Source: Bispira polyomma | Lineage: Eukaryota | Length of the DNA stretch: 64,000 bases | NCBI GenBank assembly: GCA_965649765.1 | Contig: OZ287757.1 | Span: forward strand, 30,132,001 to 30,196,000 | Direction: 5' to 3' | Part shown: piece after piece, positions 9,301 through 46,737 of the stretch | Numbering within the stretch: the stretch's first letter is position 1 | How the letters are laid out: each line of letters opens with the position of its first letter | Translations under genes and position numbers: made by a program | Notes under the pieces: model-generated | What the model saw: the letters and a program-made list of their open reading frames with translations, nothing else | Told to the model about the DNA's origin: nothing | The model's database searches: none

Positions 9301-11113
9301 TAAATTTAACATGGACTAGAAATTTTAATTTGTTGGGAATAAGATTTAACTGGAATGCCAGAGAAATGATAAACGAAAACTTTAATGAAATAATAAATAA
9401 AATTGAAAAACTTATTGTTCATTATAACAGGTACAACTTATCTATAATAGGTAAAGTAGTGGCAGTTAAAACAATTCTTCTACCAAAATTAGTGTATCCT
9501 TTAACAGTACTTCCTGAGCCACCTCCGAGCATATTTAAAAGGTTAAATCAAATATTGAAAAATTTTGTTTGGGGTAAAAGTGTTCGTATATCTTCTACAC
9601 AGCTAGAGAAAAGAATAAGCGATGGTGGACTGAAACTACCCAACATTATGGTTTTCCAGCGTGCATTGAAGTTAAGCTGGATAAAAAGGTTAATTACATA
9701 TGATGGCACATGGCAACAACTTTTTGAAAGTGAAAACATATGTAAAAATAAAAAGAAATTTTGGTAATTAGATATTGCAACACTTGAAATATACACAGAA
9801 AAAATGAGTAATCCATTTTGGAAAGAAATTGTCACATTCTGGATAGAATATCTACAAAATTGTAAACTACCTATTGACCAATAAAAATTTGATAAATATG
9901 CAAAATTGCCTTCAAACCAAAGGTATTTCATATGTCAATGATCTTTTGGATGAAACAGGTCAATTTTTAGGGTACAGTCAGTTTTGTAAACTATATAAGA
10001 TCAATATAAATTTTGTGGACTTTTATAGTCTCATACATTCTGTACCTAGGCAGTGGAAAATACAATACAATGATAAGTTGAAGAGAAATTTAATTAAACA
10101 AGAACCATTAGAACATTTGTTAAACGTTCCCAAAATTTGCAGAGAAGTTTACTGGACAATTCTTGATAATACCACTGTAGAAAGATCCCATATTTCAAAA
10201 TGGTCAAATGTGCTATGTGAAACCTTAAATACCCAGAATATGTCTGAAATGTATACAGCCAATTTTAGATGCACAATGGAAACAAAAATGAGAGCATTTC
10301 AGTATAAAATTATTCACAGAATACTGCCAACAAATCGGTACCTGAAACTATGTAAATTGAAAGAAACAGACTATTGTTATTACTGTGGTAAAGATGTTGA
10401 AACCATTGAACATTTGTTTTGGTTCTGTCCACGAATAAAGACATTTTGGCATTCTGTAGCTGATAATTTTCCATCAAAATTGCACTTTAAAGAACTTTTA
10501 ACACCTAAAAATGTGCTGTTGGGTAAGACAGGATCCCCACATGAAATGTTAATAAATCATATTTTCAATATTATAAAGAGATATATTTATGTTACCAAAT
10601 GCAATACACAAAATCTTAATGTTAATGCTGTGTTAAATACTATTCAATTTTATTATAACATTGAAAAAGTAACTGTTTTAAATAAAGGAGGTAGCTCAGA
10701 AATCTTAAAAAATAAATGGCAGCCTATAATGTATTTGCTAAAAGATTAGAAATCTGTTGTTTTTTTTTGTCCCCCCCCCCCCCCCTACAAATTATGTGTT
10801 TATAAATTAATATTGTTTCTCAAACAGGAATTTTCAAGCTTCACTTGGTACTAACCATTCAACGTTTTCTGATTGTAATATTCTCTTCGTTTTTGTAATA
10901 ATAATTGATTCAAGTTTAAAAAACCCCTCCCCTCCCCCCCCCAAAAAAGGTATTGTTTTCCTAATTATTTTGTATTGATTAATATCATATGTCAAGGTGT
11001 CTATAATTTTTTTTTTATTGTTAAATATTTTTATTGTGTATTTGTCAGATGTATAATATTATTGTATAATGTGAACTTTTTTATTGGGAAAATAAACCAT
11101 AAAAAAAAAAAAA
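6322..11113 (+). mobile_element. L1/Tx1-clade non-LTR retrotransposon, 5'-truncated (spacer + ORF2 + 3'UTR + polyA)
   Basis: A 16-bp TSD ATTATTTGTTCAGATT lies at 6306-6321 and 11114-11129. AATAAA precedes the polyA at 11101-11113. The empty site is visible in the paralog at ~22336-22352. Confidence 0.92.
7025..10749 (+). pseudogene. LINE ORF2 (APE endonuclease - reverse transcriptase - CCHC zinc finger), interrupted by stops and frameshifts
   Basis: EN motifs SMNVRG, YGPN, CGDWN; RT motifs KTPGTDG, DFEKAFD, GCRQGDPLSP, YADD; C-terminal CYYC-x8-HLFWFC. Confidence 0.92.
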
Positions 11114-21540: not shown

Positions 21541-23090
21541 TTTTAAATGAGGTTTCATAGTTAGGCATTTATAGTTTACGAACACCTTAGCTTATAGGTG
21601 CTCAATTTAAGGTTACATTAACTCTGAATCTCTGACAGGACGACAAGTCCCACTTTGATATTATGCACACACATCTGGCCAACACCACCATATATTATTG
21701 CATAACATGTTACAGGTTCCAATCAATTGCCTTGGAACCCCCCTGGAAACAGCTGGAATTTCCGATTGACATCATAATCAATCTAGTTAGTCTCAGATTG
21801 ATACAAGTACATTTGTGGTGCGTTTGTAATGGCCATCTGTGTAAAACCTAGGTATTATCCTTGAGACAAACAGCCAAAACTAATAAGCGAACTAACAGGC
21901 AGACGTGTAAACATGACTGCTTAATGCTTATTTGACAGTGGTCATAAATTATGATGGAAACACTAAGCTGTGTTGACTTTGACAGAATTTGTAGATGCTG
22001 TTGGACTAGTATTTTGTGTTATAAAACATTCTTATATTTTCCATGATGCTGAACCAAGTAGAAGGTTGTGATTTTTGTTGAAATATTACTAGCATGGAAA
22101 GATATACCTCATTTATCTAATTGTGCCTAATTATAATGTTTAAAATACCCCAATCTCAAATACCCCAATGCACCTGTACATTGAAACCTCATATTTATTG
22201 ATCTTGACAGGCTAACATTCCCATTCACTCAATTTTGATTTCAAAACTAAAAACAACATGTGTAATAGTCATAACACTTAATGGAAGTCAGCCGTTTTCT
22301 GAACATAAAAGTCATTTGAATGTTGTTGTTTTTTAATTATTTGTTCATATAACATCGAGCGAAGATCATTAAACTGACATCACTAACTTATGATATCACT
22401 GAAGAAGTGTCGGAGAATGTTTACTACACTGCTTACAAATTTGTGTTATTATATATTACTTTTTTTGATAAAAATTTAAATACTTGAAAGTGATATTGAA
22501 TAATATGATAAGGTGTATTAACATATTTAAATTGATTTTTTGTATTTATTGCACTGTTAGCATAATATGTGCCCGGTACCTGATACTCCACTCTCTAATA
22601 TGTTGAGCTCTTTTAATAAGGGCAAGGTATCTTGTATCTAGCTTTGTCTTTAACGATTCTTTGAACTAAGAGAATTTAAAAATAGTTCCTGAAATTGATT
22701 TAAAAAATTAGATATGGGACCTATAAAAAAAAATTTAAAAACAAATTTAAATTGTACTCTTATTTCTATGCTTTTAAACTTGAAACATAAAGAGGTAATA
22801 AAAGAGTGTACTATATTATCACAGAAGTAAAAATAACATAATTGTGAATATTATATTATCACAGCTGATGTTAAATTAATCACTGTTTTATGACACACAC
22901 ACCAGTTAAAATTTTCAGGTAGATTTGCTAATAAGCTTACACACGCAGAATATCATGGTATTATGTTTGGGTTTTAACATACCTGAATATTTTTTTGTAT
23001 AGATTTCACAATCATATAATGTTCTCAGAACTAACTAAATCTTTTTTCACTGTTGCTGTTATGCCTAGAGTTGTGAATTTATATACATAT

Positions 23091-23425
23091 TATTGTGAAT
23101 TGCTGCCTACCTGTAACTGTCTGTGGTGACTGTATCCTTAAGACAGCTGTAGTCCACAGTGTCTGTGCCACTGTATGTCACGACTGTCACAGGTGAGGTT
23201 CACACAATGTTCGTGTCACTTTATGACACCGATAAACCATGCACAATGTTTATTTGTTGTCCCAGTATACAACTGTCTGTATTCAAAATATCTGCGGTAA
23301 GTGTCGCTCTCGGGATATCACTTCCGGTCTCGTTTGCGGCAGTTTCACGGCTAGGCGAACGACGACTTTATAACCAGTCTCGTTTGTGGCAGATCCAAGG
23401 CTAGGAAGACGGCGACTTCACAACA
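23091..23425 (-). repeat. 3' LTR (335 bp)
   Basis: Direct repeat of 34441-34761, with about 15 substitutions and a 14-bp indel by eye. Minus-strand TATAAA at 23367-23372 and AATAAA at 23249-23254. Confidence 0.96.
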
Positions 23426-23434
23426 TTCCTCCCT
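23426..23434 (-). other. Polypurine tract
   Basis: Minus-strand AGGGAGGAA directly abuts the TG of the 3' LTR. Confidence 0.8.
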
Positions 23435-23526
23435 GTCGTGAAAAACACTCCCTCGTATGGCTTTACAACAAGTGAAACTACACCTATTGATAGAGTATGT
23501 AAGTGAATGTGCACCTACATGGAGAA

Positions 23527-26500
23527 TCAATATGTAAGTGAATGCACACCTACATTGATTCCCCCTACCAAAATTATACCGTACAGATTTTTGGTGTTGA
23601 GGAATGTGACCGACAGAACTTCTGGAAGAGGTAACTGTTTTAATTCGGCCACTCTGGAGGCTACCTCCACCAGTCCGTAAGGGGTGTTGAAATTCTCCTC
23701 CTGATGGACAGGCGCCAAAAGATGCGGGGAATCAGTCTCTAGAAGAATCCGGTCGAGTGGTAATGTTCGGACCACTTCCTCAAGCTCATTATGTCTAGTA
23801 TCCCAGAGAAGTATTGCCGTGAACCCAAGCATCACCCGCGGAAACCGTCTTAACCATTCCTCCTTTTCCTCCATCCCCCGTTGTAGCAATGCCTGTGGAT
23901 CCGGTAAGACTGCCTGTGAAACTGAGGCAGCTCCGCCTGCATAACCTTCAGACAATGGTTACTGGCTTCAGTGGAGTAGCTAGCATCGCGACAGTGAATA
24001 ACTAACACTTTCGCCCAAAGCTGCTTTTCAACATAAAAATGAAGAAAGTCAGCCAATACATCACATTGCTGCTTTAAATACTCATGGTGGTAGCCACCCA
24101 GGTCAATACCGATCTCACCAATTCCACGACAATGGCCTTCTTTTGAGATCAACCTTTTCATGCAGTCCATTTCCTTGACTAGAACCCGATGAGCCTGCTT
24201 TGGGTGCACTCCGAAAGTAAAATAAAGAGCTTTTTCCTCTTTCAGAGAATCCAACTCATCCTTGAAGGGAACCTGGTCACAGAAATTACAAACGCCCACC
24301 TCAAGGCACACCGCAACAGAAGGCATAGGGCCATCCTCCAATATTCTACCAAGCTTTTTTTGCTTCGCCTTCTCACGCAGTCTGTCCATGTAGAAATGGG
24401 AATCCCCCAGAGGATATATTACCGGGGCCCCCTCTTCACATGTCAACCCCCTGCCACATACATTCTTTTTGATCATGTTCAACCTTTGGTGTTTCTCCCT
24501 CTCTCTTCTCTCCTCCTTGGTATAAGGCACCCCAATGTTCCCTGGTCTTGTCCTTCTTACTTTGGCCTTAACCTCCACCTTCACACTTCCCGCTGTTCGC
24601 TTGGCTGCCACCTTGCTTGCGTAAGACACCATTGGCACAACAAATACAGGTGACTTCCCCTCTACTTTCCCCTTACACTCAACTGTTTTCTCCCCTTGAC
24701 TGCCAACGGCTGCAGACAAGGTCTCTTCTGCTCTGGCAAGCTGCCTCACAGGTGACGTTCCCTCTACCCTTGAGGATGCCCCCCTGATTGGTTCATCTGT
24801 ATCCATTCGTTCTGGCTCAGAGGGTGGTCTAACAGCAGGAGTGGAAGACACCCCTGATTGTCTAACCTCACCTTCTGGCTCAGAAGGTGGTTTAATAGCA
24901 GGAGAGGATGACACCCCTGATTGTCTAACGTCATCCCCAGCAAGCACCACCTCCACATCAGACTGAACATTCACAGCGTCTACTTGCACCAAAAAATTTG
25001 GTCGAGACCACTGTACTCTTTTCTCACCGACACAGTTAATTAGATGACTCAAAGCTCTCCACTGAACCAATGATGACACACGATTGGGAGGATTGATCCG
25101 TGACGCTATAGTTAAGGGATGTCCAGTAAATCACATATGAAAATTGTTTATCAATGTTTTATCCCCATCAGTCAGTGCATAAAATTCACCGGCTGGATAC
25201 CAGTCCCTTTCCTGAACCAGGTCCAACAACTCATCTAGGTTCCCACAGCCAACTAACCCACTAATGTTCATGAGGACTTACTCAAACTGTTTCATCCTGT
25301 CGTCCAGAGGCATCTCACTCTGCAAGGCACAACAAGCTGGAAGATGTCGCCCCACCATATGCCTTCTAAGGTGTGTTGTTCTCACAGAACAATTGTCCAT
25401 GTAACAGGCATTTTTTGAGGGTTTTGCAGAAAACGATTTATATGCAGATGAAGGTTGATTTTGTCTGATCTTTCTGGGCTGTGTACCAGAGTATCTAGGT
25501 TCTGGTGACCTACGCTTAACACGGTCGTCCGATCCTGACGGTAAACTCTCTTTCAGGGTAACAACTGTAGAGGATCGCTCCACAGGTCGACTGTCCAATA
25601 CTCTGAGTGTCGAGACACTATGACTCGTACTCTCTGCAGAGGATATCTCCGCAGAGTGTGCACTCGACTTGGAACCACCTTGGGCAACTGACGTGACCGC
25701 ACGTGGTTTGCTGGAACGCTCTAAACAAACTGACGTGGTCACACTCGGTTTAGGAGCCACTGATTCGGTCGCACTTGACCTGCTAGGGAGCACTGGAACA
25801 GATGACGTTGCCTCGATGTGAGAAGCGCCTTCTCTGGTTACTCTAGATGAACCCCTGGCACCACGTTCTGGAAGAGGAAACTCTCTGCAAGTCTTGCATG
25901 TGTCTAAGTCCTTTAAACACCTGGCCAATAAACGTGTAACATAGCTGAACAAGCAAATCACTTATCTCCTGATCCTCTTCCCTCGTTAGTTTCCTCTGGC
26001 TCGAATGATCATAATCCTCATTGATGCGAAAAGAATCATGATGAGGACTCTCTTCTCTGTATGTAGGACGAGGATAGGAATCATGATATCGACTCCTCTC
26101 ATCATGACTATACTCTGTGTGATTTCGGCGTCGAGAAGAATCGTGATGAGGACTCTCTTCTCTGTATGTAGGACGAGCATTGAAATCATGATATCGACTT
26201 CTCTGATCATGACTATACTCTGCGTAACTTCGGCTTGAAGAACCCGAATCGCGTCTGGAGTAGGAATTAGAATAGCGACTCCTCTCATTTTGGCTATAAC
26301 CTGTCTGATTCCGGCGTGAAGAATCTGAATCATGTCTGGAGTAGGAATCAGAATGGCGACTCCTCTCACCCTGGCTATATCTTATCTGACTTTGATACGA
26401 GAAATCCGAATGGCGACTCCTTGCATCCTGTCTGTCAGTGGAAACCTCGTGGCTGTCAGGTGAGGAATCCTGATAACGACTCCCCGAAAAACTACCACCT

Positions 26501-26538
26501 CTGGATCTTCCACGTTGATAGCTAAAACGTCTCTGCAT
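23527..26538 (-). pseudogene. Gypsy accessory ORF3 (~1000 codons): RS-rich repeats - C2H2-like motif - TatD-family nuclease; two frameshifts and two in-frame stops
   Basis: TatD motifs in order: GDSHFY, FGVHP, GIGEIGID, LVIHCRD, IHRHCY, LGFT, PLDRILLETDSP, NTP. ORFs 25278-25961 and 23850-25079 are in the same frame with readable sequence between them. A 1-nt frameshift lies in the G-run at ~23878. Confidence 0.88.
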
Positions 26539-26560
26539 CTAAAGAAATAAAAAACATTAT
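26539..26560 (-). promoter_or_regulatory. Splice acceptor immediately before the ORF3 ATG
   Basis: Minus strand reads TGTTTTTTATTTCTTTAG|ATGCAG. Confidence 0.7.
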
Positions 26561-26651
26561 TGACTATTCATACGGACAGGCTTCAAAGTTAGTAAGTTCC
26601 GTAACCAAACCTTGACTATTCATGCAAAATAACAAACCAACTTTAACTATC

Positions 26652-29600
26652 TTAAGTAGTATACTCAGACAGGTACTTTGGTCTTCTTTTCTCCCTTCCT
26701 GTCCTAGTAGCTCGAGATGAGTCTTCAGATGCATGAGGTGGTAGCATGGCCGGGGTTGTTACTTCCGAAATAGTTGTTTCTGAGGTAAGAGGTACAGACG
26801 GTTCACCATTCTCTAGAGGTTGTGAATTCTGCTTGGTATCACCATGAGTTTCATTTGAGTACAGCCAATTAATATTTAGATTATCGATATTCTCACCGGA
26901 TTCTGTATCAGGATTTCCATTTTCCAGCAATTTGCTTCTTTTTCGGCTTAACCACAGAGGTATAACCCGATCCCGACAAGGTTTTAACCTGTCATGGTGT
27001 ATTACAAAGGTTTTCTTACGATTGGCGACCCTGAATAAGATTGGAGATAACACCTCAACAACGAGGAATGGTCCCTTCCAAATCTGTTGTAGCTTACTAC
27101 TTTGTCCAATCTTTTTAGCTGAGTCCAACTGATAAACCACATCACCTGGTTCGTAAGTGTTCACCTTCAAACGCAAGTCATAATCCCATTTCTGTCTTTC
27201 CTGCGTTGATTCCAACTTTTCCCTAGAAAACATTTGCACCTTTTGCAGAATAGTTTGTAATTGATGCACATATTCAGCTGGAGTTGACTCCTGTAGCCTG
27301 TCAAATTCTCCCAGCATTAAATCAATGGGCGCCAGAACTTCACGACCAAGCATCATTAGATTCGGTGTAAACCCTGTCTGTCGATTCACAGTAGACCGGA
27401 TTGCCCCAGCTAATTGCTGTAAATGCTGATCCCATGACTGATGACCATCCTGCAGAAAACACCAGATCAATTGCAGAATCGTCCGATTATATCTCTCTAC
27501 CTAACCATTAGAGCAAGGATGATATAGAGTAGTTCTAGTTTTAGCTATTTGCAATAGTTCACAGACAGAAGTGAATAATTTCCCATCAAAATTCATCCCT
27601 CGAATCTTGAGATAAAACCATCAACAACACATTTCGCAACACTCTCAGCTGTTTGATTTGGCAAAGGATAACACTCAAGCCACTTGGTAAACTGACCCAC
27701 TAACATTAAGACATACTGATTACCATTTGCACTCGGAGTAAATGGTCCTAGAATATCCACATGTACTCTCTCCAGTGGAAATCCAGCATGGTACCGTCCT
27801 AAAGCTGCTTTGGCCTTTATGTTAGCCTTTTTGTTTTTGTTACATACCGGACAAAATTTCACATATATTTCAATATCCTTGGTGATCCCATATCACATAA
27901 ATGATTGCTTAACCCTAATTGTGGTTTTCGTCACCCCCATATGTCCAGTTAATGGTAAATCATGATTGTAGGAAATAACTTCCTGTTTCAGTTTTCCTGG
28001 AACCATTAATAACAGTCTATCACCAAATTCTCTCCACCTGTAAAACAACAATCCATCCTGGTACACCAACTGCTTTCTACAGATATAAAAATGTTTAACT
28101 TCAGGACTGCATAGAAATAACTCCTTCTGTTCTAACTCTTTCCCTGAGGTCAACCAGCTGATCAATTTTCCCAGAGAATTATCAGATAGCTGTGCTTCTT
28201 TCAGCTGATCACGAGAATATCCCTGGATCCAAGGAACAGATCTTCCAACGATACCTTTTGCTGTTATGGACTTGACTGCTAACGGCGCTACATCATCAAC
28301 ATCCTCACTGAATCTGGACCACTGTTTATGTGCTCTGCTGCAATATTTACAACCTCCACAAGGCAATGATAATGGATCTAATCGTGCCTTATAACATTCA
28401 CAGAAAAGATAATCATCTGGTATCCTTGACATTCCATCTGCGTTTCCATGCTTAACCCCTGGTCGATGGATAACGGTCATACTGAATTGACTTAACTCCT
28501 CCAACTAACGAGCTAACTGACCCTCTATGTGCCTGAAGCGCAATAACCATGTTAAACTGTTATGATCAGTTCTCACAAAAAAATTTCTAGCAAGCAGATA
28601 ATGTCTATATTGCCTAGTAAATCTGACAACAGCCAACAACTCTTTCCTGGAGATGCAGTACCTCCTCTGCTCAGGAGATAACACATAACTACTATAACAG
28701 ATGACTTTCTCTACTCCCTCCTGCACTTGTGACAATACTGCTCCGATAGCAAACTCAGAGGCATCTGTATCTGGTACAAATGGATCTTCCGAATTTGGAT
28801 AGGCTAATAAAGGAGCTGATGTCAACAGCTGTTTTATAGTTTCAAAAGCTAACTGATGTTCTTTCTCCCACAAGAAACTAGCCTTTGAGCCTGTCAGTTT
28901 ATACAACACAGATGTTAACTTGGAATAATCCTTAATATGTTCTCTGTGATAGTTAACAAATCCTAAGAATTTTTCCATGTCCTTTACAGACTTAGGTATT
29001 GGCCACTTTTGTACTTTGTCAATATTTTCAGGATTTACTGCTACACCTGCAGAACTTACTATCCTACCTAGGAACAAAGTCTCCGTTTGAAACAAAGAAC
29101 ACTTTTTTGGCTTCAATTTCAAATTGTATTTTCTGAACCTAGCGAGAGTCGTTCGTAGATTATTCATAGGATCCTCAAAATCCTTCCCTAAAATTATAAC
29201 ATCATCAAGGTACGACAGCAGCTTATTCCATGTGAGACCACGCAGAACAAATTGTATTACTCTTTGGAAGGTTCCAGGAGCATTACAAAGTCCGAATGCC
29301 ATTCTTTGATGTTCAAACAATCCGAACTTCATTATGAATGCTGTTTTGTGCCGGTCCTTAGGTCTCAATTTGCCAATAACCGCTGGCCATATCGAAAGTA
29401 GAAAAATACATGTTTCCAGACAGCTGATCAAGACACTGAGATATGGAAGGTAATGGAAACAAATCTTTAACAGTTTTTGAATTCAGCGATCTGTAGTCCA
29501 CACAGTACCTCACACTTCCATCCTTCTTCCGAACTAGCACTGGAGCTGATGCCCAATCAGAGGAAGACTCCGATATAACACCAACATCCAGCATGAGCTT

Positions 29601-30734
29601 AAGATTCTCCTCTTCCTCCCCCTCAACTCCAATAGGAGTTCTGCGCATTGGTTGCTTCACTGGACGTTCATTACCGGTATCAATGCAGTGTTTTATCTCT
29701 GCAAAACAACCGAGATCACTGCTCCCATGTGGGAATATATTTTGGAAGTCGATCAATAAGGCTCCTAATCTCTGAACTTGCATTTCATCCAGCTTAACTT
29801 TTGACCTTTCTAACAGTCCTGTTAAATGTTCTGGTACTGTCCTGACAAACTTCTAGACTATCCATAGCTATACTTTTCACTTGAAACTGCTGATCCCCAT
29901 TCCAGGATATAAAATCACACTCAACAGCATACCCTAAAACATGAGTCGGTTTTAAGGTGATACTACTGTCAGTATCATCCACAAGTTGCACAGGAACTTG
30001 TTTATTTCCCTTACATAATGTATATGGCATTAGTAAACCCTTGTTGTTTCCAGTTGATTCAACTATAAAGTCATTCTGGGATGTCAGGGAAGTTTTTGCC
30101 ATAGTTCTTACACACTGTTTGGTGGCACCCTTATTTTTTTATCAAGGAACACCCGACAAGTTTCATAAATACCATTTGACTTGGATTTTATATGATTAAA
30201 CTCTAACACCTCTTCTTTTAAAGTAAAGGTATAATCTATAAAGTTCAATTTTTCCCCGAAATGACACATGAAATCCATACCTATAATGATGGTATCTTTT
30301 ATAGATGCTACAAACAAATCCCAGACATATGAATGTTTTTTGTCAAAAGAAATTACAATCCCCTGAATCAATCATGCCTCAGCACTCATATCCATGCTAA
30401 TACCCTGTAATAGAACCCTTTTAGTTAACTTTGGTTTCTCTGCAAGCTTATCATACAAATCATAGTTTAAAACAGTCACCTCAGACCCAGTGTCTAATAA
30501 GGCCACGGTGTGACATTCATTTACTGTACAATTTACTATGGCACTTAAAGACTCATTTTCCATAGGTAATTTGGCTACCCTTGAATGTCTGGAGCTCTCT
30601 TGGGATTTGTTGCCAATAATTTCACTATAACCAGACAGGTAAGGTGATCCGTCTGCAAATCGAACAGTTTTCTTCCGTGCAGTCTTATTAGATAAAGGCA
30701 GGTGATTCAACCCGCCCTGACCTACTTGTTTAAA
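26652..30734 (-). pseudogene. pol: Gypsy pol (aspartic protease, RT, RNase H, integrase), interrupted
   Basis: LLDTGSEVTVL; WASAPVLVRKKDGSVRYCVDYR; YLDD; TDASEFAIGAVL, KELLAV, TDH; HDLPLTGH...CPVC; VHVDILGP; GPF module (WKGPFLVVE...HHDRLKP). Confidence 0.95.
30695..30734 (-). promoter_or_regulatory. -1 programmed ribosomal frameshift signal (gag-pol)
   Basis: U UUA AAC is in gag phase at 30734-30728, just before the gag stop. A 9-bp stem follows at 30718-30695. The -1 frame is the protease frame. Confidence 0.8.
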
Positions 30735-32215
30735 GAATCAAATCTTCCTCTAGGACTTGTGGAATTACTGTTTTGCACACCTCTGGGAGAACCGCTTCTC
30801 TGTTGTGGCTGAGGTGAATAAGATCTGAACCCCTGTGGCTGAGGTGAATAAGATCTGAACCCCTGATTCGCCTTCTGGTAAGATGGCCTAAGGTCTACAT
30901 TGGTCTCTGTGTTTGTATTGCTGCGCCAGTTTTTGTCATCACTTCTGCTAGGGCTACAGTGAGGTGATTGATTTCTTCTTTTGGGACAATCCCTCACTAA
31001 ATGTGATGTGTCGCCGCATTCAAAACAGGCCATGCCTTTAGGCTTTGAAGAATTTGATTTTGTCATCAAGGCTAACACTTCAGCTATTGAATTCTTCATC
31101 TCTTTTAGACCAATCTCCACAGCTTCCAGACGCTCTGTATGTGGCACTGATGGTTTGGTACCCGACTTGTTCTTAAACTGCAAGTTTCTCACTTTGGCGT
31201 TGCTTATAGAACAAGTCCCCGAACTGTCACTATCAGAACTTGTCTGTAATACCATTTCAAGTTTCTTCACATTGCCTCCACCCTTCTTCCCCAATATAGT
31301 CCTCCGATAGGTAGATGCAGATGCATATAATTTGACAAGAGTATAAGCCTCCTCCAAATTCCGTGGATTTTTGTTACAAACTGCTCTAACTGCTCCCTTG
31401 TCCTTACATCCTTTCAGAAACACTTCCACAAACAGAGAGTTATTGAATTCTTGGTCCCGAATATTTGGATACGCGTCCAGGATCATCTTCTCAAGTTGTG
31501 CCAAATACTTCTCAAGTGTTTCATCTTCATGTTGCTCTGTGGAGAGTAATGCCCATCTGACTGTTGTTGGTGGTTCAACTTTGTTGAAGTTGTGCTCAAA
31601 CTTTGTTTTCAACCAACTAAAGCATTTCAACTTCTCCTTGGGCAGTATGCTGTATTACTCCAGAGCTTCTTTCTTCATAACCATCGGAAAGGTATCTAGC
31701 TTATCAGCTTCTGACCAATTGAATTTGTCAGCTACAGCTTCAAACTGCGCAATAAAACCTCTCCAATATTCCCCGGAAAAAGACATTTTAGGGATCTGCA
31801 TCTTGTTCCTTACTGATGCGGGAGTACTGGTGATACGGGAACTTCTGCTCACTCTGGATGGCTCAGCTGCAATGGATTCACCTTCTGAGTGAGAAAATTG
31901 TAAAGACCCATCACAAGAACTATCCAGATTACACTTGGGAGTTGGTTTCGATGGCAACTTCCTACGCATGGTTGTCTTCTTGCTCTCATTACCAGTGATA
32001 TTTCTGTTATGACCTGATCGGCTTCCACCAGTATATTTTCGGGAATCTGTTTTATTCTCAATGCAGGTCACAATGCGGTTGATATCACTGTCTTCAGGAT
32101 CCTTGGGAAGTATAGAACTCTCAGGCACTTTTTTCTCAACAGGTAATGGCCTTCCAATTGATCCTACAGGCTCACCTGAAACTACTTTCACTGCATGCCC
32201 AGACTGAGGCCCCAC
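30722..32215 (-). pseudogene. gag: Gypsy gag (capsid-like region and CCHC knuckle), one in-frame stop
   Basis: FSGEYWRGFIAQFEAVADKFNW, Q..DETLEKY, FLKGC, CFECGDTSHLVRDC. Confidence 0.9.
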
Positions 32216-32436
32216 TAACTGTGATAATATGGAATCCCCTGCGACTAGTGAAAGATTAAGATCAAGACCAGTCCAGTCCAGTCCAAATCCTTGTCGTCAG
32301 GATACTGTACTGGCAATGGGTAGTCCACATCAAACCGTTGTTTCATTTTGGTAACCCCCTGATTGATGTTTTCCACTGCCCGCTTTGCTTTGCTGTTCAA
32401 ACCTCCCCATTCCAATCTACTTCTGTTATGGAAGAC

Positions 32437-33420
32437 TCAATACTCATTTACCAACTCCTGATTCTGATGATGAAGTTGTGCAATGTTATGTCTTTGACGT
32501 TCACAGTTTTTAAAGTGTGACCTCTGAAATTCATTCTTTTGCCGATTGATTTCATTGAAGTTTCGATAGGATTCCTCTACGCCTATTTCTGCTTCCACTT
32601 TTAACAGTTCTTCTTTCGGCAAAGATTTCTCCTCAGAAGGAGTACTGGCTCCTCCCAGAGTATACTTCAAAGGAGGATTAACTCCCTTTGAAGCATATTT
32701 AGTTGCCTCGACAGGAAATGTAAACATTTGTCCTTCCTGTTTCCCTTGTAATGATTTCGCCCCTAAAAGAGGATTAACTCCTTCAGCAGCAGGTTTTGTT
32801 GCCCCAACAGGAAATGAAAACATACTATCTCTCTGCCTTTCCTGTGATGGTTTCTCATCAAAAAGAGTATTAACCCCTTTTGAAGCACCTGCCTTTGATT
32901 TAACAGGAAGTGAAGATAATTTCTTTTCCTGTTCTTGTACCTGTTTTTCAATCCCGGCAACTTTAAGCTTCCACACACCAACATCCTCCTTGACTTCTTG
33001 GACCTCTTTGCTCAACTGGCCCACATCTCCCTTGAGGAATTCCAAACCTGGCACCACATAATCTTTCAGATCCTTGATCTCTTCTTTCACAGATTTCATA
33101 TCCCCTTTGAAATCTTGCATATCACCATTCATTTGCTTCATTAGATCATACAGTAAATCAAGTCCAACTACTTCCTCTTTCACATCCATTTCCCCTTTTG
33201 AAGGAGAGAACACTACACCACTACTCAGTATATTCTCCTTGACATGCTCTGGTAGCTCCACTGTCTGAAAATCTTCCAGGGACATGAATTCCAGGGACAT
33301 GAATCCCCCGAACTTCGCTCTATGCTCAAGAATCAGTTCAGCTCTACGTGGACCAACATCGTTACTCTCCATCAACTCCGCCATAGTCGCTGTATTGATG
33401 TTCCACCCAGCTTCCACCAT
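32437..33420 (-). CDS. ComEA-like helix-hairpin-helix + coiled-coil ORF (probable N-terminal extension of Gag)
   Basis: WNINTATMAELMESNDVGPRRAELILEHRAKFGGF(MSLEF)MSLEDFQTV matches the HHH_3/ComEA pattern ININTA..EL..L.GIG...A..I...R...G.F.S.EDL..V. Heptad-like repeats follow. Confidence 0.75.
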   Translation of the reverse strand: MVEAGWNINTATMAELMESNDVGPRRAELILEHRAKFGGFMSLEFMSLEDFQTVELPEHVKENILSSGVVFSPSKGEMDVKEEVVGLDLLYDLMKQMNGDMQDFKGDMKSVKEEIKDLKDYVVPGLEFLKGDVGQLSKEVQEVKEDVGVWKLKVAGIEKQVQEQEKKLSSLPVKSKAGASKGVNTLFDEKPSQERQRDSMFSFPVGATKPAAEGVNPLLGAKSLQGKQEGQMFTFPVEATKYASKGVNPPLKYTLGGASTPSEEKSLPKEELLKVEAEIGVEESYRNFNEINRQKNEFQRSHFKNCERQRHNIAQLHHQNQELVNEY

Positions 33421-34440
33421 GTCAAGTTTGTTTCGTTTTTAAAATTCACCTTTGAGGAATTTTAAATCAACAGCCTTGAATAAACAAGCTCTGTAACATG
33501 CAATTGACCTATACCTGTTTAAAACAAGTGAAACTTAGATCGCAATGCACAACATTAACACTTGACTACAATTACAACTAGTTAAAAAGAATAATGAATT
33601 CTTTCAACAGCACTTGATTAAATATATCAATCAATGTAATCAATACCAATCACCATGCAGTCCAAAAACAAGTATCAATGAAGTCCAATACCAAAAATCG
33701 CCCATACAAACTTCAAGTATAATTCACCACAAACTAAAATTTCTAATCTAATTTTCTATCAACTACTGTAGAATTTACGATACATTTGTTTCGGAACAAA
33801 CACAAAAAAAAAAAACAAAAAAAAAAACAATTTCCAAATGAATATTTTCAATTTTATTGATACTTCTTTTCCCAATGTACTTTAATTTATTTGAATTAGC
33901 AAAACATAAACAAACTCTGGATTACTTAATTATATTAGTATTTCAAATATTCATATGCAATAAATATGTAATATCTCAATATTTCCTCAAATTTACTGAT
34001 TAATTTACAACTAGTTTTATTCAAGATTCAAGAAAATTAACTTTACATTTAATGAGATAAATTTAGAAAAAAAAAAAAATAATAATAAAAAGAATATCAA
34101 AATTTACTATATATACACTAAATTTAATATATAATCAAGAAATACAATGCTATATAAATTGTACTGCTTGCAAATAATTTGTAATAGACTGCAATAAAAA
34201 TATTGTCAATAAGCCTAATTATAGCCTAGTCACAGTTGCTATGCACCAAATCATGGTAATTGCCAATCAAAATTACCGCTACATGAACTGCCAGTAAATT
34301 ACTTGAATCTTAATTCAAATACAGTTCCAAATAACAATAACTATACACAAGTAATTTTAAACTGAATTGCACCTTAAAATACTTGCAATTGCAAACAATG
34401 ACAGCTAATACTGGGTACATTCACAAACAAATGGTACCAA

Positions 34441-34761
34441 TATTGTGAATTGCTGCCTACCTGTAATTGTCTGTGGTGACTGTCTCCTTAAAGCAGCTGT
34501 AGTCCACAGTGTCTGTGCCACTGTATGTCACGACTGTCACAGGTGAGGTTCACACAATGTTCGTGTCACTTTATGACACCGATAAACCGTGCACAATGTT
34601 TATTTGTTGTCCCAGTATACAACTGTCTGTATTCAAAATGTCCGCGGTAACTATCACTTCCGGTCTCGTTCATGGCAGTTTCACGGCTAGGCGAACGACG
34701 ACTTTATAACCAGTCTTATTTGTGGCAGATCCACGGCTAGGAAGACGACGACTTTACAACA
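34441..34761 (-). repeat. 5' LTR (321 bp)
   Basis: Direct repeat of 23091-23425. It is followed on the minus strand by T-TGGTACCA at the PBS position. Confidence 0.96.
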
Positions 34762-34910
34762 ATATATCTGTTTTGTTTTGATGTTGAAAAACTCTAAAAG
34801 TCTTTTTTTAAATTGCTCAATTTTTAGCCTCAGATCCAATATTGTGTTTCATTGTAAACTCTTTAAATCAATTTTGAACTACCTTGCAAGGGGTGCTTTA
34901 GCAAGGCTAT

Positions 34911-37900
34911 ATGGCAAACATAGGAAATAGCATTAAGGTGTTATCTGCAAACTGTCAAGGTTTCAGAAGCCCCAAAAAACGGTTAGATGTGATATTATAT
35001 TTAAAAGAAACAAATGCCAACATTGTTTGCAAGACACACATTTGACGGATAAAGATATTGAAGCTATTAAAACGTTATTTAATATTGAAATCTATTTAAA
35101 CGGCAGCAGGACTAATTCTCGTGGTGTGGCAATTCTCCTAAATAATAACTTTGAATATGAAGTACTCTCCTATAGCAAGGACAAAGATGGAAAGCTTTTA
35201 AATCTCTTATTGAAGTTAAGCTGTATGACAATAAATCTGATCACTTTATATGGTCCCAATAATGATAGCCCAGATTTTTTTGACAAACTACATACAGATT
35301 TACAAAATGAAAATGCAGACTATTGTATAATATGTGGTGACTTTAACTTGGTCTAAACCCAGATTTAGACAAGCATAATTATAAAAACATAAATAATCCA
35401 GATGCAAGGCTCTCAGTTTTGAATATGATCAGCGAGGTTGGTCTATGTGACATCTATAGGCAATTTCATCCAGACAGAAAACGTTATACCTGGAGTAAGA
35501 AAACCTAGTTAAACAAGAAACGCTCGATTTTTTTTAGGGTCATCAAGTATTTTAGATATAACAAACAAATGTGACATATAATTAAGCTACAGATCTGATC
35601 ATTCCATTATAGAATTGGAATTTATGCTTAATAAGTTAATAATAGGCAAGGGAATCTGAAAATTCAACAATAATTTATTGGAACACCCTGATTTTTAAAA
35701 TTAATTAATAACATAATTGAGGATGAGAAAGAAAAATATACTCTCCCTATTTATAATCTGGATTTTCTGAAAGAAAATGATTCAAATATTGTCTTTACTA
35801 TTGACATTGGTACTTTGATAGAGAAATTATTCCTCAGAATAAGAGGGGAGACCATAAAGTTTGCTTCTTTTGAGAAGAAAAAGAATATTACAAATGAAAA
35901 GAATTTGATAACAGACATTGAAACTTTAGAATCTAGCGATACTCTGCAAGAAACTAATGCTCAATTCTTACTTGATAAATAAGATGATTTAGAGAAAATT
36001 AGAAAGACAAGAATAAAAGGATAATTAGTTAAAGGATACAATGGCTTCATGAGAGTGAAAAACCTCCTAAATATTTCTGAAATCTCGAAAAAAAAATTAC
36101 TTGAACAATGATTCTTGTATCACTGAACAAGGAGAAAATCAGAAAGACAACAATAAAAGGATAGTTAGTTAAAGCTTGGATACAATGGCTTCATAAGAGT
36201 GAAAAACCTCCTAAATATTTCTGCAATCTTGAAAAAAGTATTACTTAACCAATGATTCTTGTATCACTGAGCAAGGAGAGGTACTGCGCCACATAAGGGA
36301 ATATTATGTAAATCTTTTTAAAAGTAGAAATAATGATCTTAGTGACACAGATTTTGAACAGCTCGGTTTGAACTTCGATAAAACTGTGGGCAACAAAGAT
36401 TTGGGTTTACCTTTGAATGTGGCTGAGGTCGCGTTTATATTGAAAAAAAATGAAACATAATAAAACTCCTAGCATGGATGGGATTACAGCAGAATTTCTA
36501 ACAGTCTTTTGGGGGAAATTAAAATATTTATTACAAGTGCAATAAATTGCTGTTTTAGCAAAGGTTAGTTGTCAAATACACTATGTCGGTGTGTAATAAC
36601 ATGTATGCCAAAACCTAATAAAGATAAGGACTTTGTAAAAAAAATGGCGTTCAATCTCACTTTTGAGTATCTTATATAAATTAGCATCAGGCACAATTTC
36701 AGAAAGACTGAAACCAACATTAAATCACATAATATCCAGCTGTCTAACAGTCTTTATCAAAGGCAGATTTATAAGTGAAAATACAAGGTTGATATATGAT
36801 TTTTTAAATGCTACAGAGTTAAAAAATATCCCCAGCCTCTTGATGTTAAATGATTTTGAAAAGGCCTTTGATTCCCTTTCTTGGAATTTTTTATATAAAG
36901 CTTTGGCCTCTTTTGATTTTAGTAAAAACCTTATCAAATAGATAGAACTATTTAATAAGTATATCACAGCTTTTGTTTTACAATTCGGAGTACTATCAAA
37001 GGAAATACCTGTTGAAAGAGGATGCCGACAAGGTGATCCAATTTCACCCTATTTATTTTTGATAGGTGCAGAAAAATTATCGATGTTAATACAAGTAAAT
37101 CCACATATTAAAGGTATTATGCTAAATAAAACCAAGTTTAAACTCAAACAGTTTGCAGATGACACCACTTCAATGCTTGATGGAAGTCAGTGCTCCTTAC
37201 AAGTAACTTTAAATGTATTAAAAATATATGGAAACATATCTGGTTTATGAATGAATAAAGACAAAACTAATGTCATTCGGATTGATCGGAAAAAAATTTC
37301 AAGGAATAAATTAAAAGTGTCCATAGATTTGAAATGGGGTGAATCTAATTTTAGTTTATTAGGTCTGGAATTTTCGACAAATCTGCAAGAAATCTCAGAA
37401 CATAATTATAGTAAGACACTAGAAAGTATTAAAAAAGAGGTAACTAAATTGAATAGCCGGTATTTAACTCCATTTGGAGAAATAAAAACCAAAATTTTGT
37501 CAAAATGTATCTATCTACTAACAACAGTAGAAAGGTCAAATTCTTTTCTCAAGAAAATTAATTATACTTGATACAAGTTTTTGTGGGATGGTAAACCTGA
37601 TAAGATAAATAGATCTCTATTTTGCTCTGATTATATGCATGGAGGAATAAAAATGATAAATATATATAATTTTGAAAAGGCATTGAAAGTCAGCTGGATT
37701 AGGGAGCTACTATTCCAAACCAACTCTCAATGATATAAACTCATTGATGAAATGTATGGAAATATCAGTCATGCACTAACATCTGGTGGTGGGTGGAGCT
37801 TTAAAATTGTAAACAATATCCAGAATCAATTTTGGAAAAATATTTTCGAAGACTGGATGCTGTTATGCGATAAACAAAGAGTTAATACGAATTCCAAGAT

Positions 37901-38577
37901 TCTTCGTTCATGCATTTGGTATAATCCACAGATATTCAAAACCCCCATCTTTTTATCAGACTGGTTAAAAAGAGGAATCTATATGGTTGGAGATATACTT
38001 GACACAAATGGGGGAATATTGAGTCTGAACGAAATTAACAGTAAATTCAAAATTAAGGTAAATTTTTTTAACTATTATGCTGTTAGCATGAACATCAAAA
38101 TGTTTCTTACGAAGTATAAAAGTGAAGGTCCTTGGCTGTATGAAACACCATTTAGGTTAGATTTTACCATCCCAAAAATGTTGTAGAGAATTCTATAATT
38201 TATTTAATGAAATAAAGTTGAATAAGAAACCCTTTTGTGAATTGTTATGGGAAAACACGTTAAATGTGGAAAACTTTCAAGCAAATCGGAAAGAGGTTTG
38301 GAACAATATACACAAAAGCTGCTTCAAAAGTGTTAATGATAATTGTCTTATCTGGTTTCAGTATCGAATACTTTTCAAAATTTTAGGTACCAAAGATAAC
38401 CTGAGCAAACTAAGGCTTTCTGATAACAGTAAATATAGATTGTGTAATCAATTCTGTGAAACGATTAAGCATCTCTTTTGTGTGAAAGTAAATGAGCTTT
38501 GGCAAAATATTAAACAATGGATTTTAAATAAACTTGGCATTGATTTTACAATAACTAACACCATGAAAATTCTGTGA
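34911..38577 (+). pseudogene. L1/Tx1 ORF2 remnant (EN-RT-zinc finger)
   Basis: VLSANCQG, QDTH, SRGVAIL, YGPN, CGDFN, DFEKAFD, GCRQGDPISP, QFADDT, ETIKHLF. Many stops, and a ~140-bp internal duplication at ~35994-36279. Confidence 0.9.
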
Positions 38578-42348: not shown

Positions 42349-43341
42349 TTATACGGCATTAAGTAGGCGCTGGAAAGTTGAAGCCACTTCTGTTGAGCCA
42401 TTATTGCTCTGAATATAAGTCCATACACAATCCGACGTCCAGGTGCCATGCTCTTTGATTTGTTGTATAGGTACATCTGCTTTATAAGCCAGAGTGGCAC
42501 CTGAACGTCGGAATGCATGGAATGTATAATAATTAGATGGATACCCCAATTTATTGTTAAGTAGTGCCAATGTTTTCCTAACTCTTGAATCCGTAGCCAC
42601 CTGCCAGCCCTGAGCCGTCTTGCATTGGAACAATGGGTCTTTCTTACCAGGACTGTAAAGATGAAATAATTTTCTTAAGGCTGCATATGGACAAATGACA
42701 GCAGAACCTAGTCGTGGCAATGTCAAAAATTGCACCTTGTCCCTAGTTTGCATAGTCTTTGTCCATTTTAACAATATTTTGACTGTGTGCTTCTGAAAGA
42801 ACACATCTGCACCAGTTAAATGCCTGGTGTGATAGAATTCCCTGATTGCATGCAGTGCGATATTTGAGAGTCTCAAAAAGCCAAAGAATCCTGTTAAGAA
42901 TATACCCTTGTATACATGCGAGTTGCTTATATGGTTGCATTGAGCTACTAATCTTTCAAGCGTGGGCACATCCATGATATTTCTCTTAACTATAGTATGA
43001 GTTCTATTAATCTTTAATGACTTGATGAAGTATTTTATTTTCGGGTGATCAAAGATTACAAATTGTAAATCATATACAATACACATGGCTTTAATAGCTG
43101 CAACATAGTTTGCCACCATATAAAATGAAACTTTATTGATAACCAAAAACTCTAGAAATGACATAATACCATTTACATTTAAACATTCCAGTGCTATATT
43201 AACACAAAGGCAAAAAGCCACAAAAGTTCTAAATAAACCTTGGTAGCAACGCATGGTCTTTGTTCGAAAGGCAGTGTGTAATCTCTTGCTAGCTTTTATC
43301 TGTAGCTCTTGCACTGCTCCAGGCTCTACAACACAAAGCAT
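42349..43341 (-). CDS. Tyrosine recombinase (phage-integrase family)
   Basis: Uninterrupted 330-codon ORF with R (FLRLSN), K (WTKT), HAFRR, HGTW and Y (VWTYI). Confidence 0.9.
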   Translation of the reverse strand: MLCVVEPGAVQELQIKASKRLHTAFRTKTMRCYQGLFRTFVAFCLCVNIALECLNVNGIMSFLEFLVINKVSFYMVANYVAAIKAMCIVYDLQFVIFDHPKIKYFIKSLKINRTHTIVKRNIMDVPTLERLVAQCNHISNSHVYKGIFLTGFFGFLRLSNIALHAIREFYHTRHLTGADVFFQKHTVKILLKWTKTMQTRDKVQFLTLPRLGSAVICPYAALRKLFHLYSPGKKDPLFQCKTAQGWQVATDSRVRKTLALLNNKLGYPSNYYTFHAFRRSGATLAYKADVPIQQIKEHGTWTSDCVWTYIQSNNGSTEVASTFQRLLNAV

Positions 43342-43352
43342 AGTATCTGTTA

Positions 43353-45234
43353 TTAAAGTGTATTATCAATGTCTGTCAACTCTAGAGACGTTTTTAACCA
43401 TACTGTGTTTTCCACCAATGTGTTCAATTCTTGTACATTATCAATTGTATATTTCCAACGTGACAATAAATCAGCGATTCTGTTGTCTCTTCCCATGACA
43501 TGTATATATTGGAGCTCAATGTCTGCTGCTGCAGCCATATACCAAATATTTCTCGCACATGCTGAGAGATAAGGGTCTCTAGCCCTGCAACACATTCACA
43601 ACTGCATTGTTATCACATTAAATAAGGACCTTGCTGCCTGTCCAATATTTTTGGTATAACTTTAAAGCTACTAATATGTTAATCATCTCAAGATGAACTA
43701 TGCCAAGATTTTGGAAATTTGTTGGTATTGGGAGATGATGTACCAAACTTCTCCATCTTCCTCCCAGGCCATAAAGGCAGGCGTCTAATTCCAATGTTTG
43801 ATCAATGCTTTTATGTCCATACATAGATACACCATTGCATAGAGGCAAGAATCTATCAAACCATCTCAGGTCCCGTTTGAAATCTTCTGTTAAAATTACC
43901 TTATTTGGATTTGAAATACCTCTTAACAATTCCAACATCCTATTTAGGAAACACCTCGCAGGTTTGACACATTTGTGAATGTATAACAATTGACCCAACA
44001 AGGATTGCAACTGTTTCTTGGTACATTGGATTTTATTTTGCCATTGACTAACCGTAGTTCTAATTTGCTGTAATTTCTCATCTGGTATGGCAACTGTGCC
44101 TTTTACGGTGTCAATTAGGACTCCTAGGCACACTGCCTGTGTGCTAGGGGAATGATTGTAAGTCCTAACTTTTCCATGATTTCATACAAGCACTGAAATG
44201 AGCGTTTTGCTGAGGTGGGGGTGCCGTAACCAAGAAAATCGTCTATATAGTTGATGACGCTGTGGCCACGTAGATGCATGATGTAACGCACGGCGTCACT
44301 GACGCGTTGGAAGAATTGGCTGCCGTGACGGCTCCTAAAGGGGAGACACGTGTCTACATAAATACCTTGCCAATTGAGTCCTAACAGGTCATAATCTATG
44401 GGGTCGATTTTTAAGTGGCGAAATGCGCGACTTACGTCCAACTTATAGATGTGAGCGCCTATTCCTAATTTGGTAAGTTCTTTAGTAAGGTCGTCAATGG
44501 TGGAGAAGCTGAGCTTAAAATCTTCCCCTAAATAGCTTTAATAATAAAATAAATAATCTTTTTTCTACCCCAGCATTTACTGAATAAGCTTTAGGCCAAC
44601 TCAAATCTATAATTACTCGCCTGTTATCTGAATTAGGCTTGTGCCTAGTCATGAATGGTGAATGATGGCCGTTTGCAATTGGGTTTTGTTTGAAGGGTCC
44701 TATTATCGCCCCGTGACTTTTTTCCTCATCAATGTAGACCTGAACATCATTGGGATGTTCTATTGCTGACTTATGATTGTCCACATCACACCTGAGTTCA
44801 CATTTTCGATTAAAGCCTAAGTGAAACCCAAACTCAATGAGCTGAAGTAATTGCTGATTCCAATAGTCCCTCAACATAACCTTCCATTGTTCTGTGTTTA
44901 ATTGAGATGTCACTGGTATTCGAGCCCCCATAAAATTTGGTTGCTCCTTTCCTTTGACTTTCTGATGTAACTTAATTGGGCATTGAATGGTTGTGTTTGT
45001 TAAGCCGCTACCACTTGGTAGTGTTTGCTCAGTCATTGGAATAAATCCAAATTGAAACTCTGATTGTTTTGTAAACTTAGTGAAGCTGTCACAATTGCCA
45101 CTGATTTGTTTTGCTTTGACACCTTTGTTGTGAAACAATATCGAGTTAATGAATTTATCGTCCTGAATGCCATTTACATCAAACAATAGTTTTGTTTTGG
45201 CTGGGCTATTGTCATCGTGCGCCACTTTGTTCAC
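43353..45234 (-). pseudogene. DIRS-type reverse transcriptase/RNase H, frameshifted
   Basis: RRVIIDLSWP, DVSRAFRHL, YIDD, LQSLLGQL, LDACLYGLG, HLEMINI, NRIADLLSR. Confidence 0.9.
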
Positions 45235-45779
45235 TTTTGTGGCGGAACCCCCCTTTGTGATTGTTGCTTGTCGTGTGTACCTCTTTGCTGTAAGAGAAAG
45301 GGTTTTTGTGTTGTGACACTACTAACCGCATTGTTTGATTTCACGTAGAGTGTTTTGACACCCTGTGGTCATATTTGGTGTTTGTTTGCTTTACATCGGC
45401 ATAAGATCTGGTTTTGACGTCATAACTGACCGCCCGATATGTGCACATGACACTTTGAAACGGACGAACGAGTAAACTTTCTATGTCACTTTTTCTCACT
45501 TTTTCGCTATAAAAACATCTGCCAACATGACTTGTGTCACGCTGTTTACATTTAAAACCAGCCAGGTACTTTGCCTGCTTTGTACTGACATTTGTAACAA
45601 TAGTATTTACACATTCAGTATTACCAACGCTAGAACCATTTGTTTTTCCATTCACACTAAAAACATTGACAACCTCTCTGTTTTTGTTTACCTGTAACTG
45701 ACTGGCCTAACTACTAAACCACCTGCCCTCCAGTTTAGGACTACGAGGACAGCTACTTACTCATTTTTTGCTTGTGCTT

Positions 45780-46737
45780 GATTCTTTTTGGCCAACAAAC
45801 AATCCTTTTTGGGATGAGCCAAAATGCGACCTATACTAATGCAAAATGAACAAATATGTCTGTGGATCTATACGATCTATTCTATTTGTGTCATCCCAGG
45901 TAAGGGAGCCCCTCTCCATCTCCCACAGGAGTACTGCGTGAGCTGCCTTAGCCCCCTGCCACGTAAAATCTGTGGCTTCCTTGATTAAATCAGACATATA
46001 TGTGATAATTTTGTCTTTCTTACCTCTATCTGATTCCTCACTTATGTTTTTACAAAAACCTTGTACCCATTGGGACATTGACAACTGATCATACGACAAT
46101 CAAGTTCTTGTGGCCCCCCTAATATTGATTCTTGAGGCCACGCTACTTTTTGTTTTACCACAACTTCCACTGGACCACCCGTTTTTGATTTAATTTTATT
46201 TACATTCTCAGTACCAGAATTTCTGCTGTCCTTCTCCAGTTCCCTTAATCTGGAGTCAACTCTACGGTCAAAAGCCAAACTAGGGAGTACTTGTTCCTCA
46301 TCAGAGGATTCACTATTAGATGTACTATCACTGCTATTCTGGTTATTACATTGAACATTAGTTTTTTGACGAATTTTACTTAACTTCCGTCCACCACTTT
46401 TGAGCACGTCCTTCTGTCGGCTGTTGCTGGATTCCGCTACCTGCTCCTCTACTACGTCAAGACGAGAGTTTACCCGCTGTAGTTCCCTCAATATCTGCAA
46501 CTGGACACTATCCTGGACACTATCCCGCTCTGCACTACTTCCCACAGCTCTTGCACTATAACTTTGCTGCCCATTTTCGCTAACATTAGTGTCCAACACT
46601 GTATGGGCTTCCAACACTGCCGTGTCATTACTATTGAATTTTTCAGTCAATTTTACACCACGTGTGCACTTTTTTCCTGTTGGTGGAACATGTCTTTCCT
46701 CACACTTTCTACACAGCGCCTTTGATTGTTTAGGCAT
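45780..46737 (-). pseudogene. DIRS/Ngaro gag-like ORF, frameshifted
   Basis: N-terminal CRKCEERHVPPTGKKC, VAWPQE, YDQLSMSQWVQGF, FTWQGAKAAHAVLL. Confidence 0.8.

Follow-up and report, generated by a model that had tools for sequence, protein, structure and literature searches.

The DNA analysed here, called the window throughout, is a stretch of 64,000 nt of Bispira polyomma lying on contig C10 of a genome of 1.04 Gb and 75 contigs. Its minus strand carries an 11.7-kb Gypsy LTR retrotransposon, in which the LTR pair, the TSD, the PBS and the polypurine tract are all present. The 5′ LTR (34441..34761, minus strand, TG...TA) is identical to the 3′ LTR (23091..23425, minus strand) at 305 of 335 positions, with 14 gap positions, and the element is flanked by the 4-bp TSD ATAT (34762-34765 and 23087-23090). 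The PBS (34432..34439, minus strand) is of the tRNA-Leu(TAA) type; the match is shortened in the window copy, and the longer PBS of the sister families matches the same genome's tRNA-Leu(TAA) genes at their 3′ ends. A tandem cluster of tRNA-Ser(TGA), tRNA-Leu(TAA) and tRNA-Ala(TGC) genes was observed elsewhere in the genome (L307-L310; G000:C3, about 12.385-12.416 Mb). The coding regions have the order of Ty3/Gypsy elements: gag (30722..33420, minus strand), with an HhH domain and a CCHC knuckle, is followed by pol (26652..30720, minus strand), having a protease region and then RT, RNase H and integrase (Pfam RVT_1, RT_RNaseH, Integrase_H2C2 and Integrase_p58_C, in that sequence). A TTTAAAC heptamer (30734, minus strand) stands ahead of the gag stop, and pol ends with TAA at 26654-26652. 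Between pol and the polypurine tract (23426..23435, minus strand) lies a third reading frame, ORF3 (23570..26538, minus strand).

ORF3 consists of an Arg/Ser-rich start, a three-helix domain, a domain combining C-x4-C-x9-H-x4-H with a helical part, a linker and a TatD nuclease, the latter at about 24400-23575. The Arg/Ser/Asp-rich start (window 26027-26411) is built of imperfect 81-105-nt repeats. The window copy is decayed: gag and pol are broken by stops and frameshifts, while the ORF3 frame shifts near 25940 and again near 23875 and is interrupted by in-frame stops near 25279 and 25132. Because of this damage, the ATG at 26538 opens 231 codons only and does not reach the TatD part.

Outside this element, we observed tyrosine-recombinase-like ORFs at 42349-46737 (minus strand; weak Phage_int_SAM_5 match), which resemble those of a DIRS-type element, and ORF fragments at 7250-10749 and 37752-38186 (both plus strand), which look like LINE endonuclease/RT ORFs. 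The window also contains an intronless galactosyltransferase ORF (PF01762; 16587-17733, plus strand) and, 31 kb away, a second copy of it (47758-48730, plus strand) with about 90% identity, as well as a tandem array with a unit of 39-40 nt (53270-54198).

A genome-wide search with the TatD part yielded at least 145 matches, all intronless (142 scored among 378 candidates; the figure is a lower bound in which fragments are counted). We fetched 40 loci from this search and 20 from a DNA search, plus 20 upstream stretches. The loci sort into seven families, A (that of the window) to G, with between-family TatD identity of 42-68%, and almost every copy of them is decayed. Trees of RNase H and of TatD gave compatible groupings of families A, B, F, C and D (19 shared rows); as the RNase H tree is weak, with just 2 of its branches starred and with two rows that are long, the two trees indicate compatibility and not co-divergence. 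In a midpoint-rooted FastTree of 132 mostly unnamed rows, containing no named TATDN1/2/3 rows, families A-G fell together with public proteins into one clade with a support of 98. The metagenome scan gave only distant TatD matches (25-32% identity), and no matches were obtained among viral contigs. Three coded runs of one study, of which contigs only were used, displayed even cover of leader, gag, pol and ORF3 with loose ends at the LTR borders; therefore, they behave as DNA. Among the joints listed for these runs, none led to 26538 or started at the family-D donor, which, for DNA, says nothing about splicing.

Seven copies (L114, L124-L128 and L131) represent a family-C derivative that is devoid of pol, the ORF3 start and the splice-acceptor-like site before it, so that TatD (about 7670, element strand) directly follows the gag end (about 7415). 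This derivative has spread, because four of its copies have their own LTR pair and TSD. In four of the seven (L114, L125, L127 and L128), reading on from the TTTAAAC heptamer in the -1 frame leaves TatD open, and a Gag-TatD frameshift fusion is possible there; a single founder deletion would give this frame by chance in 1 of 3 cases.

We then considered ORF3 as a gene. A family-B copy, one of the 39 ORF3 starts examined, has an unbroken 837-codon frame running from the homologous ATG to the end of TatD (15 other matches of the search script were unrelated sites). Two public proteins, of 821 and 1017 aa, share the layout of ORF3, and the 1017-aa protein starts with MPRGQRFVRGRSRGG, resembling the ORF3 starts found here. 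These frames indicate that the stretch from the ATG to TatD is one ORF. The window ORF3 matches TatD_DNase (Pfam, E 1e-17). In a predicted model of the 821-aa protein, the folded parts (about 87-149, 252-390 and 509-821) are separated by disordered linkers; 509-821 is a TatD barrel (Foldseek E 7e-14 to 1e-10), and the remainder forms two small helical domains and nothing of the F-type envelope glycoprotein kind. The earlier note on this DNA had described the acceptor at the ORF3 start as "env-style". This label is apt for the mode of expression and fails for the product, which is a TatD_DNase match and no envelope protein.

The identity of the TatD part to solved TatD structures is only 16-25%. 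Each of eight metal/active-site positions is retained in 37-45 of 46 TatD copies, and alignment to YcfH revealed HxH along with the conserved His, Glu, His, His, Glu and Asp positions of group II. The HxH motif is given as the mark of group II TatD proteins in the available text of PMC10085689. Between families, synonymous differences in TatD have reached saturation (pS 0.77-0.90), whereas pN amounts to 0.20-0.40. The dN/dS values within families, 0.37-0.47, are those to be expected of copies that decay after insertion. We concluded that, as judged from these substitution patterns, TatD is under purifying selection and is a selected gene of the clade. Together with the retained metal-binding residues, this selection bears out the earlier view that TatD is not passive cargo. 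The product of ORF3 is predicted to be a protein of roughly 700-1000 aa with a group II (HxH) TatD domain and to be an active nuclease.

The middle domain of ORF3 (window 25281-25420 and 25040-25130, minus strand; residues 250-390 of P0003) comprises C-x4-C-x9-H-x4-H plus a helical part ending in PPN..L.HWR, and its predicted fold is of high confidence. Many diverged proteins in public data also contain it (at E<=1e-3, 131 domain rows in about 200 proteins, redundancy included, retrieved by a TatD-bearing query). Scanning of the window pieces gave no Pfam match, the best fold comparison among 48,161 chains reached a Z of 3.1, there was no viral-fold match at E<=0.001, and the best Atlas score, 0.90, was to clusters without names. 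This lack of matches does not amount to a new fold. The same domain terminates a coiled-coil ORF in family H (L311-L330, e.g. L322:280-6275, element strand), a group of LTR elements of about 6 kb that share the tRNA-Leu PBS, where it was matched in 7 of 20 stretches.

Next, we analyzed the region immediately preceding ORF3. On the minus strand, positions 26560-26536 read ...TGTTTTTTATTTCTTTAG|ATG: an acceptor-like pyrimidine tract ending in TAG (26539..26556, minus strand) adjoins the ORF3 start, with the AG at 26540-26539 and the ATG at 26538. The earlier note had placed such an acceptor against the ATG about 110 nt past the pol stop, and we find the sequence as claimed, the gap being 113 nt. 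A branch-point-like TACTAAC (26588..26594, minus strand) lies in the pol-ORF3 spacer, within which the 12-mer ATGAATAGTCAA also occurs twice. The consensus of a U2-type 3′ splice site consists of a pyrimidine tract, YAG and an upstream branch-like motif, and all these features were found here using a home-made score. By the same pyrimidine score, a measure without training on this species, the window acceptor ranks first among the 395 YAG sites of the element. The corresponding ranks in the seven families are 1/395, 6/239, 3/304, 3/304, 13/259, 1/292 and 2/277 (for families B, C, D and F the scored stretch excludes the leader), which puts the site within about the top 5% of scored YAG sites in every family.

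The conservation of the acceptor among family copies, a check proposed earlier, was then assessed. YAG stands directly 5′ of the homologous ORF3 start (MQRR, MQRG, MPYG, MPYG, MPRG, MDRG and MERG) in 7/7 families, and 8-13 of the 15 nt preceding it are pyrimidines (one representative per family). Among 69 distinct copies spanning the site, YAG is present in 67, ATG in 64 and both in 63; this count omits copies with deletions across the site, such as L058, L059, L062, L135 and L183. The motif could have arisen by chance or been inherited without function, TatD being passive cargo. Of the 11,008 ATGs that the fetched loci contain on the element strand, 452 (4.1%) are preceded by YAG, and the copies within a family are closely related and nearly all decayed. 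The background of 11,008 ATGs includes the true acceptor sites, and YAG plus at least 9/15 pyrimidines precedes just 117 of them (1.1%). Moreover, the identity of the spacers between the A/B, C/D and E/F/G groups (0.52-0.63) is near the level of shuffled spacers (0.51-0.57). With TatD pS saturated as well, the YAG motif has not been kept by mere closeness of the families, and the survival of a neutral YAG would be unexpected where synonymous sites are saturated. The families share ancestry, so that their agreement represents conservation and not seven independent events. The retention of the motif across families, the purifying selection on TatD and its intact active-site residues largely refute an origin by chance, to which we give hardly any credence. 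The site is a well-conserved splice-acceptor-like signal which, on these comparisons, serves a selected TatD gene, and it is likely to be a functional 3′ splice acceptor.

The spacer itself admits another explanation. ORF3 might be made from unspliced RNA, by ribosomes that enter internally or reinitiate after terminating pol; a TGCATG motif (26621..26626, minus strand; 88 nt 5′ of the ORF3 ATG) and the U-rich tract would then be signals for translation or RNA export that resemble an acceptor in appearance only. The spacer is U-rich, its length is held at 96-127 nt across families, and it is present in all DNA copies. This explanation does not account for the near-invariant YAG at -3 to -1 (67/69). 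A pyrimidine at -3 is a poor context for translation start, and YAG places one there; pol, too, is itself a low-level frameshift product. We regard expression without splicing as quite improbable. TGCATG, which we take to be an RBFOX-type element, is present in the spacer of 55 of the 69 copies, every one of the 7 families being represented among them, against an overall background of 0.35 per kb. A literature search for a link of RBFOX/UGCAUG with Gypsy elements returned nothing relevant.

If the site is an acceptor, the identity of its donor becomes the question. The main rival partner to a distant donor, absent from the earlier note, is a weak proximal donor-like site, AAG|GTTTGG (26605..26613, minus strand; GT at 26610), which would define a 72-nt intron. 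The acceptor would then be real and would close a short intron of 67-72 nt, the ORF3 mRNA arising from an internal promoter in 3′ pol or the intron being preceded by a small extra exon. A constant short spacing is typical of minimal introns, and a donor-like GT lies 72, 72, 68, 70, 72, 72 and 67 nt 5′ of the ATG in families A-G, respectively, with branch-like CTAAY/TTGAC motifs between the GT and the ATG. However, these donors match just 4-5 of the 7 consensus positions, and a donor-like GT at 60-90 nt also arose in 22-40% of shuffled spacers, depending on the family, even if the narrowness of the observed spacing is striking. In several C and D copies the acceptor is retained although the proximal site is gone or altered. 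A short intron would also leave the stronger donors of the LTRs unexplained, and the internal promoter is hypothetical. We consider this arrangement unlikely, although it deserves to be kept in mind.

The best candidate partner belongs to the 5′ LTR, near whose end CAG|GTAGGC (34455..34463, minus strand; GT at 34460) precedes the PBS by 21 nt. This string had been noticed earlier together with CAG|GTATAG (GT at 33514) in the leader, and both are present where reported. For the LTR site we found a counterpart in every family, 15-25 nt ahead of the PBS: CAG|GTAGGC, AAG|GTAGAC, AGG|GTAAGT, AAG|GTGAGT, TAG|GTTAGT and ACA|GTAAGT, the last being common to F and G, which share one LTR type and hence one donor sequence. 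Counted as matches out of 7 to the donor consensus, these sites score 5, 4, 6, 7, 5, 5 and 5 in families A-G; random 36-nt windows reach 4, 5, 6 and 7 in 27%, 7.2%, 1.1% and 0.1% of cases. In the window copy, AATAAA lies 144 nt upstream of the LTR donor, which probably places the latter past the poly(A) signal, in U5.

Some observations speak against a pairing of this donor with the ORF3 acceptor. The donor of family B (4/7) is at background level, and the GT at 67-72 nt competes in all seven families. Family H, in whose 20 stretches gag, pol and TatD were unmatched, has an LTR-end donor-like site as well; therefore, the LTR-end donor is not specific to the ORF3 acceptor, and it may be the general major donor of the clade. 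LTR donors can also suppress polyadenylation, as described in the accessible portion of PMC5035957.

The leader site at 33514 (33509..33532, minus strand) did not hold up as a donor. It matches only 4/7 of the consensus, a score found in 27% of random 36-nt windows; its letters at +3 to +6 differ from copy to copy, in contrast to the constant CAG and preceding pyrimidine tract, 94 nt 5′ of gag; and no counterpart was seen in the 135 nt preceding gag of the other families. As the upstream tract is invariant, the site looks more like an acceptor, and this pattern suggests that it is one rather than a donor. As regards a possible leader intron with its end close to gag, acceptor-like sites precede the gag ATG by 9-14 nt in families C and D (weak in F) and by 94 nt in A, and none is clear in B. 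The leader (window 33420-34439) belongs to a set of five copies from four families with leaders of 1.0-1.45 kb, 26-29% G+C and 9-12 ATGs, and a sixth leader, of 2.8 kb, contains 50 ATGs. Being ATG-laden and low in G+C, such leaders may require gag to be expressed from a spliced leader or by internal initiation.

From the sequence features and their conservation we propose that the LTR-end donor pairs with the ORF3 acceptor, and we give somewhat better than even chances to the two being joined to yield a subgenomic ORF3 mRNA. Transcription from the 5′ LTR would produce an unspliced RNA, used as the genome, and in a fraction of it the LTR-end donor would be joined to the acceptor whose AG ends at 26539. 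This would excise 7.9 kb comprising the PBS, the leader, gag and pol, and would place the ORF3 ATG immediately after a short LTR exon. There are no ATGs in the 200 nt before the LTR donor of the window copy and 0-2 in the other families. Between the donor and the ORF3 start there are 154 ATGs, which disfavour scanning of the unspliced RNA to ORF3. As the donor lies 5′ of the PBS, the spliced message would be without the PBS and hence would be translatable but could not prime reverse transcription. The weak donor 72 nt upstream, together with TGCATG, might tune how frequently the acceptor is used. Among the best matches listed for family A (28), D (43) and C (37), none began at the ATG as a retro-copied spliced form would; the queries were the spacer plus ORF3 starts, and the best candidates only were scored. 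The nearest candidates, upon inspection, had internal deletions or unrelated flanks and were not spliced forms.

This organization resembles several known systems in part. The errantiviruses (Drosophila gypsy, ZAM, idefix and springer) are also Gypsy elements whose third ORF follows pol and precedes the 3′ LTR. Their ORF3 (env) arises from a spliced subgenomic RNA (bioRxiv 10.1101/2023.08.03.551782, available text), in which a splice from the 5′ end reaches env-F; the same splice is what we propose here. In those viruses the upstream partner joined to env by the splice is a short peptide, the AU of the start codon or a peptide of Gag, whereas in the present elements the whole ATG follows the AG and the candidate donor is inside the LTR, before the PBS. 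The third gene is an F-type glycoprotein in the errantiviruses and a TatD nuclease fusion here.

A closer likeness in content is offered by the bdelloid LTR retrotransposons Juno and Vesta, whose non-env ORF3s encode a DEDDy 3′-5′ exonuclease and a GDSL esterase (PMC5408684, as far as its available text goes). That text states that ORF3s are typically expressed via spliced messages. In both cases, a nuclease with intact catalytic residues (a 3′-5′ exonuclease in the bdelloids) has been captured into the ORF3 slot; unlike Juno/Vesta, the present ORF3 has the TIM barrel fold of TatD and an extra Zn-finger-like domain. Purifying selection is clear between families here, whereas for Juno/Vesta the available part of PMC5408684 reports no significant departure from neutrality within a genome.

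The position of the donor has a parallel in the foamy viruses, in which the major splice donor lies in the R region of the LTR, 5′ of the PBS (PMC5035957, accessible portion). Both donors are within the LTR and upstream of the PBS, subgenomic use being established in the viruses and proposed here. The present donor differs in lying 15-25 nt from the PBS, probably in U5 as judged from AATAAA, and in belonging to a Gypsy retrotransposon.

Among cellular proteins, TATDN2, TATDN3 and YcfH share with the ORF3 product the HxH motif, the downstream His/Glu/Asp positions and, by prediction, the TatD fold. The present proteins, known from sequence, are distinct in being intronless, element-borne and fused to a C2H2-like and helical domain. 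TATDN2 is described as an R-loop RNase (PMC10711561, available text), and 3′ exonuclease and AP endonuclease activities are described for TATDN1/3 in the corresponding part of PMC10085689. By analogy with TATDN2 and TATDN3, the nuclease would most likely trim RNA in RNA:DNA hybrids or DNA ends, and such trimming would act during transcription or replication of the element, to its own benefit.

A literature search in sources other than Repbase and subscription journals brought up no publication that describes TatD for LTR retrotransposons. A candidate, PMC6962438, was set aside, as the one mention of TATDN2 in its accessible portion is in the legend to a Hox cluster. That a third ORF can be expressed by splicing is known for env and has been stated for the non-env ORF3s of rotifers; env-style splicing as such is ordinary. 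A broader proposal, which we put forward as speculative and rather doubtful in its entirety, is that of a widespread and old animal Gypsy clade having a spliced mRNA, an LTR donor before the PBS, control by a decoy donor and an RBFOX-type element, and an active TatD serving as a tissue-regulated R-loop or DNA-end nuclease.

The conserved splice signals along with the purifying selection show that an accessory nuclease has been maintained through the whole radiation of these elements. A caution for the annotation of invertebrate genomes is that "TATDN2-like" genes lacking introns may belong to retrotransposons.
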